DNA of 64,000 bases from Minisyncoccota bacterium (GCA_022842645.1 JALHPE010000001.1:264178-328177), one strand, 5' to 3'. Positions 7,428 to 43,299 are shown, numbered from the stretch's first letter. The notes: generated by a model not told the origin, from the sequence alone. Translations and numbers: made by a program.

Positions 7428-8935
7428 GGCGACTTCTCATGCGCGGCGGAACCTCCAGGTTCCGCCGCTTCTTTTTGCATAACAACCCACGCGAAGAGTG
7501 CTGCGTAACACCCCGCAAGCACCAATCCACTAAACGCGGGGATACTCAGCGTTCCAAAAGGAATCGCAGACAATAATTGTGCGGTCGTAATAATATACGA
7601 AAGCAGTGCGAGTGCTGGAAAACCAAATAAAGGTGCGAGAATGCCTGTAAAGAGCCCGAGGAGTGCCGCGAGCGCGGAAAAAAGCATGGCAAACGGAAGT
7701 GCAACAAGTACTAGGATATTCGCGGGGAGCGCGACGACGCTGAGCATTCCTGTCTGATAAAGCAGCAGTGGTAGAACGGCAATTTGGGTTCCAAGCGTGC
7801 CTGCTGCAATTTCTCGCACACCAAAGCGCGACGTGATCCATGAAAGATGCGTCTCAAAAAGCGGTGCGACAACGACAAGCCCGAGTGTGGCAATCACCGA
7901 AAGCTGAAAACCGGGATCATAGAGAAGTACGTAGGGGTTCCAGAAGATCATCCCCACCGCAACGAGAGCAAGTGCTCGCACAGCAAGATACGTGCGTCCG
8001 GTTGCCTTCCCTGCAATTGCGATTGTTGCCATAAGCGCCGCACGCGTCGACGCTGATGCAAATCCCGTAATCGCCGCAAAGAACAGTGCGACGAATGCGC
8101 CGAGCCCCAAACGCACTAATTGCGGTGCACGCGAGAGGGTGCGTAAGAGCGCATCCACTACGACCATAATGTTGTAGCCGGAGAGCACGACAATGTGCGT
8201 GAGACCCACGATGCGAAACGTTTCAGAAAGCTCTTCGCCGAGACCGCGCTTATCGCCCACCGTAATTCCGCCCGCGAGTCCAGCGTATGGCTCAGGAAGT
8301 GCGAGCGAAAGTCCTTCCAGAAACTTTTGCTTGAGCCAAATGGCACTGGCTTTCAAACGATTCCCCGTGCCACTTTCAATCACTTCTACGTGTGCAAACG
8401 ACATCTGATAGAGAATGCGATCTTTCGCAAGAAAGCCTGGGTAATCAAAGTATCTTCCCTCTCCTGTTTCAAAAGCTTCTGGGATGCGGAGCTCTCCCTC
8501 GACACGCACCCGATCGCCATACGTGCCGGGCGAGTGGAGTGGTGCGCTCACAATCACAGAAAGCGCACTCAATACTGTTGTTGAGCCCACACTCTCAATA
8601 CGCATGGTAAGCCGCACGTTTTTCTCTCGCACATCCGGCTCTGCTACAATCACTCCCTCGAACGAAACTTTTTCTCCCACGTAGACATCGATAAGGGGAT
8701 CACTCGTACGTGTCGCGCCCTGCATCCGCGCCATACCTCCAGCGCATGCGCAAAGGAGAAGTGCCGCAACTAATGCGACACGCCACTCTACCTGCGCAAC
8801 ACTGCTGGCGAGCAACAACATTCCTGCAAGCGCAATGAGCCACCCAAGAGTTACAACACCGAACGGAAAAAGACTTTGCACAAAAACTCCAACACTAAAA
8901 CCAATTACTAGTGTCCAAAATATTCGCACTGCCAT
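7424..8935 (-). CDS. comEC: ComEC/Rec2 competence membrane channel domain (no MBL domain)
   Basis: Polytopic membrane protein with a ComEC competence-domain signature. Start moved to internal ATG (MAVRIFW) because the TTG at 8983 overlaps the upstream terminator hairpin. Confidence 0.8.
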   Translation of the reverse strand: MAVRIFWTLVIGFSVGVFVQSLFPFGVVTLGWLIALAGMLLLASSVAQVEWRVALVAALLLCACAGGMARMQGATRTSDPLIDVYVGEKVSFEGVIVAEPDVREKNVRLTMRIESVGSTTVLSALSVIVSAPLHSPGTYGDRVRVEGELRIPEAFETGEGRYFDYPGFLAKDRILYQMSFAHVEVIESGTGNRLKASAIWLKQKFLEGLSLALPEPYAGLAGGITVGDKRGLGEELSETFRIVGLTHIVVLSGYNIMVVVDALLRTLSRAPQLVRLGLGAFVALFFAAITGFASASTRAALMATIAIAGKATGRTYLAVRALALVAVGMIFWNPYVLLYDPGFQLSVIATLGLVVVAPLFETHLSWITSRFGVREIAAGTLGTQIAVLPLLLYQTGMLSVVALPANILVLVALPFAMLFSALAALLGLFTGILAPLFGFPALALLSYIITTAQLLSAIPFGTLSIPAFSGLVLAGCYAALFAWVVMQKEAAEPGGSAAHEKSP

Positions 8936-35056: not shown

Positions 35057-35156
35057 TCGAAATTCGTATCTCTAAAGTTATCAACACGAGCGCCGTCCTA
35101 AAGGACGGCGCTCGGCGGTATGCTGAGTGTATCTACTCATTATCTATTCTAATACC

Positions 35157-35933
35157 ATGACACTTTCTCGCACATTCCTATTAGCAATCGCTCTTCCATT
35201 CCTCGCATATGGAATCGCACTTGCACAAGATACAGGAGTTGAAACTGAAACGTCGGTTGAAATGCAAGCTCCACCTCCTGCTGGCTCTCAACCACCGATG
35301 AAACCCATCGACGCCCTTCGTCGTGCAAAAGAAGCTCAGCAAGGGATCCGCACGGACGCGCGCGATGCGCGACAAGACTGGCGAGCAGAAACGAGAGCAG
35401 AATTGCAAGGCGCAGCGCCTGGAGAACGCCCCGGCATGATGCGAGAAGCTGGTTCCGAACGCATGCAAATCGCAAAAGATCGAATGGCAAGCACAACCGG
35501 ACTCCGCATGAAGATGAAGGCGGCCGTAGATCGACATGCAGGACTCATCCGTGAACGATTCTCAAACGCTATCACTCACCTTGAAAAACTTATGGCGCGC
35601 ATTGATTCGCGCATTACCAAACTCAAAGACGAAGGCGTCGATGTGAGCGCCGTCGTCGCCCTGCAGACTGATGCAGAAAGTGCCATCGTTTCGGCACAAG
35701 CTGACATTAAGGCTGTCCGCGACTACATGTCGAACGTCACTGACCAAAGCAACCGCGAAACAGTAAAAGCTGAAATCGAACCCCTTATTAAATCTGCGCA
35801 AGAAAGCATCCGCGAGGCACATAGCGCAGTACGCAACCTCGTAAAGAGTCTTGTTGATCTCAACAAAGCAAACAAATCTGCATCGGTTGAGGTCGAAGCC
35901 AGCGCCCCCGCTTCTCCAGAGACCACGGAATAA
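35157..35933 (+). CDS. hypothetical secreted coiled-coil protein
   Basis: Signal peptide MTLSRTFLLAIALPFLAYGIALAQ. Charged helical body. Confidence 0.5.
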   Translation: MTLSRTFLLAIALPFLAYGIALAQDTGVETETSVEMQAPPPAGSQPPMKPIDALRRAKEAQQGIRTDARDARQDWRAETRAELQGAAPGERPGMMREAGSERMQIAKDRMASTTGLRMKMKAAVDRHAGLIRERFSNAITHLEKLMARIDSRITKLKDEGVDVSAVVALQTDAESAIVSAQADIKAVRDYMSNVTDQSNRETVKAEIEPLIKSAQESIREAHSAVRNLVKSLVDLNKANKSASVEVEASAPASPETTE

Positions 35934-35979: not shown

Positions 35980-36366
35980 ATGGACCCCCTCACTCAAAAT
36001 CAAAACCCCATCACAACCGGTAGTCAGATGCCGCCGCAGATGCCAAGTTCAGAACCTGAGCGTTCTCCCATGGGCCCAGTTGCAGGCGCTGTGATTGTTA
36101 TCGTACTCCTCGTCGCAGGTGGCCTCTACTTCTATGGCGCAAAACTCAATCGAGAAACCATGATGAAAAACAACGCACCGTACATACCATCGGACACAAT
36201 GATGGAAGAAACATCGATAATGCCTACTGAAGCATCGATGGATACCATGGTCGGCCTTCCTTCACAAAGCAGTTCCGATGACGTCTCTTCCATTGAAGCA
36301 GATCTGAATGCAATGGATATGGGTGCAATCGAATCCTCAAACCAGGCTGAACTGAATAATCTCTAA
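35980..36366 (+). CDS. hypothetical membrane protein (128 aa)
   Basis: Pro/Ser-rich N-terminus, one TM helix (GAVIVIVLLVAGGLYFYG). Confidence 0.5.
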   Translation: MDPLTQNQNPITTGSQMPPQMPSSEPERSPMGPVAGAVIVIVLLVAGGLYFYGAKLNRETMMKNNAPYIPSDTMMEETSIMPTEASMDTMVGLPSQSSSDDVSSIEADLNAMDMGAIESSNQAELNNL

Positions 36367-36377
36367 AAAGCACGGCA

Positions 36378-36416
36378 AAGCCGCCGCCCGCCCCTAGCGG
36401 GCGGCGGCTTTTGCTT
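36378..36416 (+). terminator. rho-independent terminator
   Basis: AAAGCCGCCGCCCGC-CCCTAG-CGGGCGGCGGCTTT long GC stem followed by TTGCTT. Confidence 0.6.
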
Positions 36417-36429
36417 GTACACTCGCCGA

Positions 36430-37503
36430 ATGTCCAAAAAACCAAAAATTACTCGAGACGAAAAACGCTGGGAACTCATCCTCGAAGGCGAAATCGCACC
36501 AGAATCCATTGCTGAACACCGCGAACACGTGATTGCGGGCTTTGTGAAAGACGCCCACCTCCCTGGCTTCCGCCCCGGCAAAGCCCCTAAAGAACAAGTC
36601 TTAAAGCACGTCGGCGAAGCGGCCATCCTTCGCGAAACAATCCAGCATGCAATCCAGCACGAACTCCCAGAACTCCTCGCAAAAGAAGAAGCACATATCG
36701 TTGCGGCTCCACAGGTGACCGTCGAAAAAGCACCTGATTCGTTCCCCGCAACAGAGCCGATTGTCTTCACCGCTCGCGCACCTCTCGCACCTGAAGTGAA
36801 ACTCGGCGACTACACATCGATCGCAAAGAAACACAACGGAGATAAGAAAGAAGTTGAAGTAACCGACACCGAACACGCAGAAACGATGAATCACTTAAAG
36901 CGCGAACGCGCACGTATCACCAAAGTCGAGCTTGGTCTTACCCCCGCCGAAGCCGCAGAAGAAGCGCGTAAAATGGAAGAAAAAGATCTTCCCGCACTCG
37001 ACGATGAGTTCGTAAAATCTCTCGGCTACGAAAGTGCGGAGAAATTCTCCGAAACCGTTCGCACCAACATCAAGACAGAAAAAGAAATGAAAGAAACAGA
37101 AAAGCGCCGCGCGACCATGCTCGATGAAATCGTCAAAGATTCAAAAGTCTCCTACCCTGCCCTCCTTAAAGAATACGAACTCGACGACATGGAATCCCGC
37201 ATGAAAGACGACATCGAACGCATGGGCCTTTCTATGGAGAAATACCTTGCGGAAACAAAGAAATCGCTCGCCGACATCCGCAAAGAATGGGATGAACCAG
37301 CAGATAAGCGCGCCAAAATGCGCCTCGTTCTCGCGCACATCGCGCAGGCAGAAAAAATCGACGCCGACCCAGCGCGCGTGGAAAACGAATTCACCCACGC
37401 GAAAGCCCACTACAAAAACGCCAGCGAATCCGACCTCCGCACCCACATCGCCCACGCTCTTAGGAACGAAGCGGTCATCACGTGGCTCGAGCAACAAGTT
37501 TAG
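36430..37503 (+). CDS. tig: trigger factor
   Basis: Ribosome-binding N-domain (GFRPGKAPK motif) and C-terminal chaperone arms. Start placed at MSKKPKITRD (track ORF begins with TTG at 36415 inside the terminator T-run). Confidence 0.85.
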   Translation: MSKKPKITRDEKRWELILEGEIAPESIAEHREHVIAGFVKDAHLPGFRPGKAPKEQVLKHVGEAAILRETIQHAIQHELPELLAKEEAHIVAAPQVTVEKAPDSFPATEPIVFTARAPLAPEVKLGDYTSIAKKHNGDKKEVEVTDTEHAETMNHLKRERARITKVELGLTPAEAAEEARKMEEKDLPALDDEFVKSLGYESAEKFSETVRTNIKTEKEMKETEKRRATMLDEIVKDSKVSYPALLKEYELDDMESRMKDDIERMGLSMEKYLAETKKSLADIRKEWDEPADKRAKMRLVLAHIAQAEKIDADPARVENEFTHAKAHYKNASESDLRTHIAHALRNEAVITWLEQQV

Positions 37504-38213
37504 GTTACCTGCTCGAATTTTCCGATAATTCTCTCTATCCCTTCAGTGGAATTCCGGCACAGCGCTAGAACATCTACGTTTTCTCCCTCGAGAAAGAACG
37601 ATACTTTTATTTCAACTCTCGGCTTTAAATTAGTATCTATTTCTCCCTCGATTCCTTTGTTGGTTAGATAAAAATGATTGAAGGAATTCCCGTTATCATC
37701 AACATTTCTCATGGTAGTGGTTCCTGAGTGTAGAGTTAGCCTTAAAGCCTGTCCGAGAAATACAGTAGCGTCTTGCCTTCTACTTTGTGCCAATAATTTA
37801 CGATGCCCCAAATTCGAATACTTTCGTAGAAGAGAAATCCAAGCGTTCTCAGGATGATACGGCTGCGCTTCCTCAATAATTTTGAATGCTGCCAAATCTC
37901 GCCCCTTCAAATCATTCATACCAAATTGGCCAACCAAACTTCGCAATTCTTGTAGATTTTTACAGACTGGAAACTGAACCTTGTGTTTCTTCCCTTCAAA
38001 ATCTTGAAGGGTTAATTGTGATCGAATTTTATTATCAAAATAGTTAAAGATCACCTGATCAAGAAGGCGGTTTAACAGTGTTATTACAACTTGTGTCGTA
38101 TTTCTCGCTTCATCTGATACTAAAGTTTCGGTTTCTTTATGCTGGTTACATAAAGCAATAAGATTGAGTAATTGACGATTGATGTATTCGAGTTGGATTT
38201 TAATTTCGCTCAT
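37500..38213 (-). CDS. hypothetical protein, AT-rich, with RKYSNLGH (Rx6H) HEPN-like motif; candidate horizontally acquired gene
   Basis: Antisense ORF between tig and clpP. Its stop codon overlaps the tig stop codon. Visibly lower GC than flanks. No confident domain. Confidence 0.5.
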
Positions 38214-38304
38214 AGGATTCAGTTCGTGGGCATTAAAGTATAAGTTGCAGTCACACACACTTCAACATGGCATCCAAAAACTCCTCGTGCTACCATCCCC
38301 GCAT

Positions 38305-38904
38305 ATGAAAAACACACCCATAACCGCACAAATGTTAGTCCCGATGGTCGTTGAGAAAACCACCATGGGCGAGCGCGCCTATGACATCTACTCCCGCCTT
38401 CTGAAAGAGCGCATTGTCTTTCTTGGCGGCCCGATTGACGACCACGTGGCGAATCTCGTGATCGCTCAGCTCCTTTTCTTAGCAAGCGAAGATCCAAAGA
38501 AAGATATTTCTTTCTATATCAATTCCCCTGGTGGACACGTCTCGTCCGGCCTCGCGATCGTAGACACCATGAATCATATCCAGCCGGATGTCTCGACTGT
38601 GTGCGTTGGTATGGCGGCCTCCATGGGTGCGGTACTTCTCTCAGCGGGTAAAAAGGGCAAACGCTTCGCGCTTCCGAATGCCGAAGTGATGATTCACCAA
38701 CCTTCAGGCGGTGCAGAAGGCCAGGCGTCCGATATCGCGATAACCGCGAAGCACATACTTGCAACACGTGAGCGCTTGAACAAAATTCTTGCGAAAAATA
38801 CCGGACAGTCAGTTAAAAAGATCGAAACTGACGTCGATCGCGACTTCTTTATGACCGCCGACGAAGCAAAAACCTACGGCGTCATTGACAAAGTGCTCGA
38901 ATAG
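38305..38904 (+). CDS. clpP: ATP-dependent Clp protease proteolytic subunit
   Basis: [33 protein letters not shown] and catalytic Ser/His/Asp context ([11 protein letters not shown]). Start is either 38305 or 38332; the track start at 38179 overlaps the antisense gene. Confidence 0.9.
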
Positions 38905-39158
38905 TTGGACAGGTTACAGGTTTTAGGGTTTAGTTTTTAGAGGCTTTTGTTTTATGGCTTATATAAAGGTTATTCCCAGAACCTACCGCCCATTCCCTAC
39001 AACCTAGTGAGGTGCTATAGTGCATGTACACCTTACCATTTATGTCACTTTACACCGCGCACCTCTCTATCAAAGCGCACTCTAACCGTGTCTTTCTATC
39101 AATGAACTCTGTCACACGAATGCAGGCGTACTAGAGGCGCGTGGTTAAATCCACGCAT

Positions 39159-40688
39159 ATGTCATTAAAATTAATTCTCGTCCTCGTCGCTCTCTCGGGC
39201 GTTCTTGGAATTGCAGTCGGCTACTTCCTCCGCTGGATCATAAGCCTCGGAAAGCGCGGCTCGATGGAGCTTGAAATCAAGCAGATGCAATTAAACGCCG
39301 AAGAGCGTGCAAAGCAGATTCTTGAAGAAGCTGAAAAGTCGGCAAAAGAAAAAGCAACAACCCTCACCGGTGAATTTAAAGAGCGCGAACGCGAACTCAA
39401 GCAAACCGAAGAGCGCCTCGTCCGCAAAGAAGAGATGCTTGACCAACGCCAACAGAACGTTGATAACGAAAACGAATCTCTGAAGGCAAAAGCAGAGGAA
39501 GTACAAAAACAAAAAGAAAAAGCTGAGACACTGATCCGCGAACAACAGGAAAAGCTTGAGAAGGTCGCAAGCCTCTCGGCCGAAGAAGCCAAGCAGGCAC
39601 TCATCACCTCAATAGAAAAACGCTACGCAGACGATCTCGAAGGTCGCATGCGGAAACTCGAAATTTCTGGCAACGAAAGACTCGAGGCCCGCGCAAAAGA
39701 GATTCTCACCACCTCCGTTCACCGCCTTGGCAACTCTGTAGTTTCCGATGTCATCGCAACCACGATTTCTCTCCCGAACGACGAAATCAAGGGCAAAATC
39801 ATCGGTAAAGAGGGTCGCAATATCCGCACCTTCGAGAAAGTAACAGGCGTTGATGTGATCGTCGACGACACTCCGGGCACGATTACCCTCTCCTGCTACG
39901 ACCCGATCCGGCGCCAGATTGCTCGCATCGCACTCGAAAATCTCATTCTCGACGGACGCATCCAGCCCGCAAAGATTGAAGAGGCGGTACAGAAAGCTGA
40001 GGGCGAGATCAACAACATCATCAAGAAGAAAGGTGCTGAAGCGGCATACAACGCGAAGGTCACGAATCTTGATCCGAAGCTTCTTATGATTCTTGGTCGC
40101 CTCTACTTCCGCACCAGCTATGGTCAGAATGTGCTCGATCACTCAGTGGAAATGGCAAATCTTGCAGCAATGCTTGCCGAAGAACTTGGCGCTGATGTTC
40201 AAATCGCTCGTGCCGGTGCCCTCCTCCACGATATTGGCAAGGCGCTCGACCACGAAGTTCCGGGCACGCACGTCGAGATAGGCCGTCGCATCCTCCAAAA
40301 GTTTGGTGTCGATGAGCTCGTCGTGAAAGCAATGCAAGCACACCACGAAGAATATCCGTACGAAACACCTGAAAGCATGATTGTGCAGGTGGCAGACGCC
40401 ATTTCTGGTGGCCGCCCTGGCGCACGCCGTGATTCAGTTGAGAATTACATCAAACGTCTCGAAGACCTTGAGGCACTTGCGAATCAACACCCTGGGGTTG
40501 AAAAGAGCTTCGCCATCTCCGCCGGTCGTGAAGTCCGCGTCATCGTAAAACCAGAAGAAGTTACCGACCTCGAGGCGCGCAAACTCGCTCGCGACATCGC
40601 GGATTCGATTGAAAAAGAGATGCAATACCCAGGAGAGATCAAAGTGTCCGTGATGCGCGAGACGCGTGTCATCGAATACGCTCGGTAG
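39159..40688 (+). CDS. rny: ribonuclease Y
   Basis: N-terminal TM helix, coiled coil, KH domain (IGKEGRNIRTFE), HD domain (LLHDIGK...H). Confidence 0.9.
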   Translation: MSLKLILVLVALSGVLGIAVGYFLRWIISLGKRGSMELEIKQMQLNAEERAKQILEEAEKSAKEKATTLTGEFKERERELKQTEERLVRKEEMLDQRQQNVDNENESLKAKAEEVQKQKEKAETLIREQQEKLEKVASLSAEEAKQALITSIEKRYADDLEGRMRKLEISGNERLEARAKEILTTSVHRLGNSVVSDVIATTISLPNDEIKGKIIGKEGRNIRTFEKVTGVDVIVDDTPGTITLSCYDPIRRQIARIALENLILDGRIQPAKIEEAVQKAEGEINNIIKKKGAEAAYNAKVTNLDPKLLMILGRLYFRTSYGQNVLDHSVEMANLAAMLAEELGADVQIARAGALLHDIGKALDHEVPGTHVEIGRRILQKFGVDELVVKAMQAHHEEYPYETPESMIVQVADAISGGRPGARRDSVENYIKRLEDLEALANQHPGVEKSFAISAGREVRVIVKPEEVTDLEARKLARDIADSIEKEMQYPGEIKVSVMRETRVIEYAR

Positions 40689-42415: not shown

Positions 42416-42574
42416 TAAACAGGAAGGATTCTAGCACCTTTTCATAAAAACGTCCGCTTCACTGATACCACCCTACTGTTTAGGGGGTTTGCGCCAGAGA
42501 ATCGTTTTTAAAAGCAAATACCACTGCCACTGCTTACCTTGTCATAAAGGACGAAATGCTTTTTATTTTGTCCT

Positions 42575-42958
42575 TTATAAAACCTGCTCGTAAAACCGAC
42601 ATCTCGCAATTCGATTTTGGGTATCAAGCACCACCGCCACGACATCGATCTGATATTCACGATTATCACCCTTCTCCTCCATGTAGAGACTAGCGGTTCT
42701 TGCGACTTTCCGAAGCTTTGAATCGTGAGCCATTTCTTCTGGTCGGTGATCAGACATTTCACGTGAACCGTCATCACGCAGAGTTTGTGACTTAACCTCA
42801 ACAAACCTAACCACCCCTCCCTTCTCAGCAATAATATCTATCTCTCCCCACTTCTTGCGAAAATTAGTTTCTAATATAGAAAAACCCTTATTTTCCAAGA
42901 ATTTACGTGCAATATCCTCACCAAGATTGCCGGTTATCTGTTTTGAGGTCTTTCCCAT
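42575..42958 (-). CDS. yraN: YraN family (UPF0102) endonuclease-like protein
   Basis: GNLGEDIARKFLENKGFSILETNFR...GEIDIIA...VRFVEVK motif pattern of UPF0102. Confidence 0.8.
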   Translation of the reverse strand: MGKTSKQITGNLGEDIARKFLENKGFSILETNFRKKWGEIDIIAEKGGVVRFVEVKSQTLRDDGSREMSDHRPEEMAHDSKLRKVARTASLYMEEKGDNREYQIDVVAVVLDTQNRIARCRFYEQVL

Positions 42959-43299
42959 GTGTTTTCACGTGAAATGTTAAACTTTGTGTAACTTAAGAAA
43001 CATTATCGTCAAAATACAGGATGTCTCTTATTTTATGGCTTAAAAGCTGAGTTTTAAGTATAAACCCCTAAAAACGGTATATGTCCTATATCCACATATC
43101 CCCAGAGTTGTCCACATATTGGTCATTGTTTTGGACAGAAGTCACAAAAACTCTCTTTACTTCGTTTCCTGGTACCGATACTCGCTATGCTCGTTTCCGT
43201 AGGTGGTCGAAATTAGTCTAATGCGGATACTTCATGTCCGTACGTCGTCGCTCGAAAGCAAAAGAGCCTTTCAGGCTCTTTTGCTTTACTCGCCCCTAG

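Follow-up and report, generated by a model that had tools for sequence, protein, structure and literature searches.

Why does a genome of the Saccharibacteria lineage carry a reverse-strand gene of foreign base composition between tig and clpP, and what might that gene do? The question arises in a 64-kb stretch of DNA from a Minisyncoccota bacterium (GCA_022842645.1, JALHPE010000001.1:264178-328177), which we call the window and whose positions are used throughout unless another locus is named. A preliminary description, made from the sequence alone, had pointed to an AT-rich, antisense gene without a nameable domain in the tig-clpP gap, had suggested its horizontal acquisition, and had guessed at an abortive infection (Abi) or toxin-like role from an apparent HEPN motif. 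Here we find good support for the horizontal acquisition of this open reading frame (ORF), hereafter ORF X, and we propose that it could be a stand-alone, non-canonical HEPN-like conflict effector, a reading that we favour tentatively, at a little short of an even chance.

ORF X and its borders

The longest ORF X frame lies on the minus strand at 37500-38258 and would encode 252 residues from a GTG codon. We rejected this start: almost certainly, the real one is the ATG at 38213, which gives a coding sequence of 37500-38213 (stop included) and a protein of 237 residues. We conclude this because the closest homologue aligns from that Met, because gene callers gave an identical 237-residue product on 13 independent metagenomic contigs, and because the only sigma70-like match lies upstream of this ATG, inside the longer frame. 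The frame first described as encoding about 240 residues is therefore present, with its start corrected. The promoter match, TTGAAG-17-TATACT on the minus strand at 38237-38265, falls in the 91-bp spacer from which ORF X and clpP diverge and is a candidate ORF X promoter; it is the only one that a consensus scan found in 37300-38500, where shuffled sequences average 1.8, and it is hence weak evidence.

At its other end, ORF X converges on tig with a spacer of 0 bp. The gene ends ...CAGGTAACC TAA at 37502-37500, and direct reading of the plus-strand TTAG at 37500-37503 confirms the overlap of stop codons noted earlier: the TAG of tig occupies 37501-37503 and the TAA of ORF X is the complement of 37500-37502, so that two bases are common to both.

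Horizontal acquisition of ORF X

The base composition of ORF X is the most extreme in the window. Its guanine-plus-cytosine (GC) content is 38.2%, and 36% at third codon positions (GC3), the lowest values in a window whose 46 long ORFs average 51.3 +/- 3.1% GC and 51.4 +/- 5.1% GC3. Of the 61,859 other 714-bp segments in the 64 kb, not one reaches its AT content (z = -4.5), and the global GC minimum at this segment length falls at ORF X (37566-38279). The gene is indeed more AT-rich than its surroundings, as had been reported by eye, and GC and GC3 both separate it from its flanks, although its synonymous codon usage is just mildly atypical (z = -1.7). The same bias is seen across the family, whose genes have a lower GC content than their host at each of the nine loci tested (in Shewanella, for example, 31% versus 60%).

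Comparison with relatives localizes the change and marks ORF X as a recent arrival. A scan with the trigger factor protein, taking one genome per species, found three relatives, all of them Saccharibacteria or Patescibacteria metagenome-assembled genomes, and the 3' flank of tig was compared across four genomes in total. In the closest relative, L011 (tig 89%, clpP 92% and rny 94% identical), the order is tig-clpP-rny with a spacer of about 325 bp between the first two genes, and ORF X is absent; in L012 (tig 33% identical), the same order is kept with a spacer of 311 bp and ORF X is again absent. Similarity between the window and L011 stops at the last tig codons (about 37495) and restarts at 38287, with the 18 bp upstream of the clpP ATG conserved, while the L011 DNA that lies between tig and clpP is unrelated to the window segment and has 51.7% GC. 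Because similarity breaks at both ends, the acquired unit appears minimal: the inserted or replaced segment (37496-38286, 791 bp, 38.3% GC) holds one gene and about 70 bp upstream of it. Around ORF X, we looked for flanking repeats and for scars left by the insertion, and saw nothing beyond short repeats attributable to chance.

In the third relative, L013 (tig 77% identical), the equivalent site is occupied by a different gene. An AbiEii toxin gene (L013:6131-7051, minus strand; Pfam, 2.1e-17) stands convergent to tig (L013:5010-6098) and 33 bp after it, and neither clpP nor rny occurs in the next 5 kb after tig. AbiEii, a nucleotidyltransferase of type IV toxin-antitoxin and abortive infection systems, differs from ORF X in fold and chemistry, and normally works with an AbiEi partner; its presence suggests that the site 3' of tig accepts conflict genes. 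In this lineage the 3' flank of tig looks variable and, judging from the four genomes compared, may be an insertion hotspot for such genes. As a separate observation, the L013 AbiEii gene is followed by a 443-residue ORF without a Pfam match.

That ORF X is a horizontally acquired insertion, as had been proposed, is well supported, for three reasons: the two relatives in which tig and clpP remain neighbours have no ORF X in the gap, the base composition of the gene is foreign, and its homologues are scattered over integron cassettes, prophages, a phage, a plasmid and unrelated islets. The comparison leaves little room for a housekeeping gene, specific to this lineage, whose product would partner trigger factor or ClpP and whose composition would be a quirk: its location between the two genes and its fixation in all contigs with an identical tig would fit such a role, but the gene is missing from L011, whose tig is 89% identical, and from L012, no homologue elsewhere adjoins tig or clpP, and its composition is that of an outlier, which effectively refutes this very improbable explanation.

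A divergent family on mobile DNA

Which proteins are related to ORF X? A word-indexed search of 5.8 billion proteins returned only ORF X itself and one full-length homologue that is 43% identical. With this pair as the query, HMMER was run exhaustively against 1.84 billion cluster representatives (50% identity clusters) and recovered 112 at E<1e-3, among which 46 reach E<1e-10. Nearly all of the representatives are 225-245 residues long and match end to end, yet the members are very divergent, with a mean identity of 19-28%, and every source name among them is 'hypothetical protein'. ORF X belongs to a real but unnamed family of cytoplasmic proteins of about 230 residues.

The remark that no domain could be named also holds for curated collections. 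Pfam, NCBIfam and PADLOC contain no match to ORF X, its PHROGs matches do not rise above noise (E>0.1), and searches of PDB sequences with profiles of two and of 56 sequences returned only coiled-coil noise. The 56 aligned members gave no consistent family match in Pfam or PADLOC, and the same result was obtained in PADLOC-DB v2 for ORF X, these 56 members and eight further homologues, including the Escherichia coli, Vibrio and Bacillus copies. Widening the profile to 115 diverse members for a third search brought in no annotated relatives; a scan of viral contigs with the Patescibacteria clade found nothing; the longer members (382, 312 and 292 residues) showed no informative domain fusions; and a literature search for WP_000085744, the E. 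coli member, found no paper.

We examined the surroundings of about 15 homologues. All of these contexts are different, and the family gene is solitary in every one: there is no recurrent neighbour or candidate partner gene, and a Pfam scan of the neighbours gave only an FRG domain. Among the Patescibacteria, one copy (L001) follows a TnsA-like fragment, a MerR gene and a small membrane ORF, with a tyrosine recombinase 1 kb beyond it; two others (L020 and L025) follow nrdD-nrdG and are separated from htrA by three small unknown ORFs. These three ORFs are co-oriented, encode 129, 133 and 115 residues (L020:8725-10008; L025:8387-9775), have no Pfam match and may form a small island with the homologue; the 133-residue product has a DGxHR-like stretch reminiscent of ParB/Srx-type domains.

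Outside the Patescibacteria, the copies are found on several kinds of mobile DNA. The gene of Vibrio cholerae (L022:1453-2145) is a superintegron cassette with VCR/attC copies around it (1313-1460 and 2159-2264); before the next attC, the cassette otherwise holds just a called ORF of 37 residues that overlaps the 3' end of the family gene. The family seems rare in V. cholerae, with clusters of 4 and 19 members. A Marinobacter copy is bounded by attC-like repeats in a co-oriented cassette array, and an Oleispira copy lies in a co-oriented array where attC-like repeats recur. As single ORFs bounded by attC in co-oriented arrays, such homologues have the form of integron cassettes; ORF X, which lacks flanking repeats, does not.

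Phages and plasmids carry the family as well. In the Vibrio harveyi group, the copy is an opposite-strand accessory gene within a prophage. In E. coli, WP_000085744.1 (E 1e-24 against the family profile) lies in a lambdoid prophage between the Rz/lysozyme lysis genes and the gene for a DUF1441 small terminase subunit, on the strand opposite to its prophage neighbours (L031:6077-6769, corresponding to NZ_CP016404.1 999482-1000174). This protein is encoded in 98 of 5,426 complete E. coli genomes, always on the chromosome and always annotated as hypothetical. Bacillus copies occur on phage PK1, near a phage recombinase, and on plasmid pBTZ_1, and in Shewanella and a Flavobacterium the gene forms a single-gene islet between housekeeping genes. 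Distributed in this way, the gene behaves as self-sufficient cargo of mobile elements, and it moves between very distant hosts in at least three ways: in integron cassettes, in temperate phages and on plasmids.

Predicted fold and conserved residues

With two sequences, the AlphaFold2 prediction was too poor to use (predicted local distance difference test, pLDDT, 53); with 56 sequences, pLDDT rose to 94 with a predicted template modelling score (pTM) of 0.87. In the resulting model, helices at residues 2-23 and 34-66 are followed by a helical insert (69-115), a third helix (121-135), a beta-sheet module (143-208; codons at 37590-37787, minus strand; block pLDDT 79-93) and a final helix (215-236) that closes the bundle. 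The model thus has the four-helix up-down bundle core of the HEPN superfamily.

A Foldseek search of the PDB with this model found no significant match. Among its weak matches, no class other than the HepT toxins recurs, and the structures listed are the HepT toxins 8xdj, 5yep and 7ae2, together with 1wwp, 1jog and the Csm6 structure 6tug. In BFVD there was one significant match, to an unnamed phage protein (A0A514TZW7, E 2e-6).

Residue conservation was counted over 171 family members, earlier column counts having used 56. P82 and H137 are invariant, F81 and Q117 are each 99% conserved, W125 reaches 91% and N134 84%, and position 52 is Asp in 166 members and Glu in 4 (97% Asp, the rest Glu or Asn). 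The conserved D52 (codon at 38058-38060, minus strand) is in the long second helix, and H137 (37805-37803) directly follows the third. Between these two helices, the helical insert (residues 67-120) contains conserved FP and QP[YF] loops.

These positions can be compared with the published description of HEPN domains, in which a conserved acidic residue in helix 2 lies close to the motif, the motif His closes helix 3 or opens the loop to helix 4, helices 2 and 3 typically have an insert between them, and, in Csx1, a beta-hairpin comes after the motif (Anantharaman et al., 2013; PMC3710099). According to the model, ORF X fits this description: helix 2 bears D52, an insert separates it from helix 3, H137 stands where helix 3 ends, and a beta insert and a last helix follow. 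In the model, D52 and H137 thus occupy the positions of the HEPN RNase active site, with the canonical Arg missing. If helix 3, which is 15 residues long, starts level with the end of helix 2, simple geometry would place H137 beside residue 51-52. One HEPN family, Parep1/8, is known to keep the His without the Arg (PMC3710099).

The Arg is where the earlier interpretation needs revision. RKYSNLGH (R130-KYSNLG-H137; codons at 37803-37826, minus strand) had been read as the Rx4-6H motif of HEPN RNases, and it is present in ORF X with an invariant His, but the Arg is not conserved. Because only the His is, we consider the match partly coincidental. At position 136, next to the His, ORF X has Gly and 81% of the family has Lys. 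ORF X therefore appears HEPN-like at the level of the modelled fold and by the positions of its conserved residues, and not by the Rx6H motif.

Two attempts to place the family more closely are worth recording. A HepT-like seed for building a HEPN profile was sought with regular expressions in the retrieved DNA and none was found, and the supplement of PMC3710099 has no alignments. Membership of the integron HEPN family represented by PDB 3jrt was considered and rejected.

A possible conflict effector and its rivals

What could a solitary, mobile gene with such a fold do? We favour, tentatively, a stand-alone conflict effector because the gene is solitary, is carried on mobile DNA and is low in GC, because an Abi toxin occupies the same site in L013, and because the predicted fold is of HEPN type with conserved His and Asp. 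An Abi or toxin-like function, first offered as a guess, is probably the right direction. In our working scheme, ORF X is a self-contained accessory gene that, with its own promoter region, replaces the tig-clpP spacer. The members of its family move one gene at a time, within mobile DNA or alongside it: in integron cassettes, prophage accessory-gene slots, a temperate phage, a plasmid and small genomic islets. The protein is predicted to fold as a HEPN-type four-helix bundle with a helical insert between helices 2 and 3 and a beta-sheet module between helices 3 and 4. It might be kept inactive by its own architecture or oligomeric state until a phage or stress cue switched it on, whereupon metal-independent RNA cleavage would bring growth to a halt, as in the single-protein HEPN defences HepS and ApeA. 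The analysis shows the insertion, its foreign composition, the family with its mobility and solitary state, the fold and the conserved residues; the RNase activity, the trigger and the defence phenotype are what we infer, and the beta-sheet module is a candidate sensing, regulatory or autoinhibitory module.

The closest functional parallel is HepS ('HEPN Solo'; PDB 9OIJ), an abortive infection protein of the Salmonella prophage Gifsy-1 that forms an inactive tetramer opened by a phage tail protein (PMC13043305). Like members of the ORF X family, HepS is a single HEPN-type protein, encoded by a prophage accessory gene and without a partner, and we adopt its autoinhibited oligomer, phage protein trigger and RNA cleavage as a possible model by analogy. 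HepS has a canonical R100-x4-H105, and its relation to the ORF X family is a functional analogy only. A second parallel comes from integrons: the cassette-borne HEPN protein of PDB 3jrt (Anantharaman et al., 2013) and Esos (Darracq et al., 2024, preprint) are HEPN-type products of single-gene Vibrio cassettes, as V. cholerae cassettes also carry the ORF X family. Esos, which we compared with this family by description only, has measured anti-phage activity and, in strain N16961, corresponds to one of VCA0308, 0322, 0356, 0366, 0374, 0396, 0399, 0409, 0410, 0419, 0441, 0450, 0457 or 0458; 18% of the tested V. cholerae integron cassettes of unknown function, including the HEPN-like-only Esos, were anti-phage (bioRxiv 10.1101/2024.07.02.601686). 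A bolder extension is that the family constitutes a hitherto undescribed anti-phage system of one gene, which would span phyla from the Patescibacteria to the prophages of E. coli and be built on a non-canonical HEPN fold, with an Asp/His(/Gln) site lacking the Arg and with the beta module as a phage sensor; we regard this broader claim as rather doubtful.

Several observations weigh against a HEPN-like effector. The R130 column holds Cys in 95, Arg in 25, Lys in 12 and Ser in 10 of the 171 members (22% basic), so that the R-x6-H of ORF X is not a property of the family, which lacks Rx4-6H. HEPN models from Pfam and PADLOC gave no match to ORF X or the 56 members at E<=0.1, except for one isolated match to CARF_HEPN (E 0.02). 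There are no defence genes flanking ORF X within the window, no phenotype has been reported for any member, and PADLOC has no model for the family. Every contig with an identical tig also carries ORF X, with no presence/absence polymorphism found in the source population, and because the gene is fixed in this way there is no sign of ongoing mobility. Finally, the homologue in L026, also from Patescibacteria, is in a position typical of immunity genes: it directly follows a giant gene for a 2,479-residue RHS/YD-repeat toxin (L026:110-7549) and a 100-residue membrane ORF (7581-7883). It is the missing Arg, the absence of a profile match and the modest fold scores that keep our confidence in the effector reading below even.

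The main rival accepts the mobility of the gene and denies the nuclease. Here ORF X would be an HEPN-like or generic helical-bundle binding protein acting in immunity to a polymorphic toxin, in anti-defence, or as a sensor or adaptor. Polymorphic-toxin loci such as that of L026 are the usual place of immunity genes or orphan modules, and an anti-defence role would suit the copies on phages and prophages just as well. HEPN and other bundles are not told apart by the fold scores, and the absence of the canonical Arg recalls the HEPN domains with incomplete motifs that are known as non-catalytic binding domains (PMC3710099). Against this, an invariant His, a near-invariant Asp and a conserved Gln in members so divergent look more like an active site than a surface for binding. 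A toxin neighbour is seen in only one of about 15 contexts, and immunity proteins normally keep their toxin partner, whereas this family has none. We judge this explanation rather unlikely, though it is the strongest of the alternatives.

Could ORF X instead be the toxin of a toxin-antitoxin pair, kept by addiction rather than defence, whose antitoxin (a tiny ORF, or an antisense or adjacent RNA) was missed? Its best structural matches are the HepT toxins of HEPN-MNT pairs (PDB 5yep, which is SO_3166, 7ae2/7ae9, 8xdj, 4nqf, 1wwp and 1jog), and like them it has a four-helix bundle with a conserved His at the end of helix 3; unlike them, it has no MNT partner, is about 100 residues longer through its helical and beta-sheet inserts, has no detectable sequence similarity to them, and belongs to a family that does not conserve the Arg of the HepT RX4HXY motif. 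Integron arrays are rich in toxin-antitoxin cassettes, and the convergent overlap with tig would give antisense RNA over the 3' end. Yet neither MNT nor any other recurrent neighbour appears in the window or in the roughly 15 homologue contexts, and ORF X has just 91 bp upstream and 0 bp downstream in which to hold a partner. The preliminary description had raised the possibility of a cognate antitoxin-like small ORF or RNA, and our search near the gene found none: no Rfam family reaches its threshold in 36000-39500, the sole match, P17 at 36379-36456, scoring 28.6 bits against a gathering threshold of 45, which we treat as chance. Because of this, and because the V. cholerae cassette holds only the family gene and the 37-residue ORF overlapping its 3' end, we consider the toxin-antitoxin reading improbable.

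If the effector reading is correct, a family unnamed in Pfam, NCBIfam and PADLOC would be added to the growing set of solo HEPN effectors, and its active site would break the Rx4-6H rule; if it is wrong, ORF X would simply be a further hypothetical gene within a small, variable stretch of the genome. The phage defences of Saccharibacteria are poorly known, and the comparison marks the 3' flank of tig as a landing site for conflict genes. Were the anti-phage reading true, ORF X would be among the few identifiable defence genes in these reduced genomes. The E. coli copy WP_000085744.1, present in 98 complete genomes, offers a direct way to put the hypothesis to a standard phage-defence assay.

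Flanking genes and other features of the window

Upstream of ORF X on the plus strand, tig (36415/36430-37503) matches Trigger_N and Trigger_C in Pfam. Read from 36430, the trigger factor is short, with 357 residues, Trigger_N at residues 20-160 and Trigger_C at 209-334, and Pfam finds no FKBP-type peptidyl-prolyl isomerase (PPIase) domain between them. The trigger factors of the relatives are likewise short (357 residues in L011, 362 in L013 and 374 in L012), and these sequences suggest that this Saccharibacteria lineage has a PPIase-less trigger factor.

On the other side, clpP is also on the plus strand, in an ORF that begins at 38179 with a conserved ATG at 38305 (CLP_protease, 1.6e-84 in Pfam). 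It is followed not by clpX but by rny, which encodes an RNase Y-like protein of 515 residues (clpP and rny together, 38305-40688); the order tig-clpP-rny is common to L011 and L012. If tig and clpP were once co-transcribed, read-through must now cross 791 bp of antisense gene. With a 325-bp spacer already present in L011, clpP is probably transcribed from a promoter of its own. A terminator scan flagged, on the plus strand, a perfect palindrome with an 8-bp stem, CCCTTCAA AATC TTGAAGGG, at 37992-38011, within the ORF X codons for the variable loop TLQDFEGK; it could terminate read-through from tig, or may be due to chance.

Two genes upstream of tig lies an Ala/Glu-rich ORF of 268 residues (35127-35933, plus strand). 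In some samples of the same population, it is called at 258 residues (L004/L005, 2770-3546), which suggests an indel polymorphism. The second most AT-rich stretch of the window, at about 40% GC, is 42439-43150, and it contains a 127-residue ORF (42575-42958, minus strand) among genes for tRNA-Pro, tRNA-Gly and tRNA-Arg. Judged by eye, the product of this ORF looks like a small endonuclease of the YraN/UPF0102 type.

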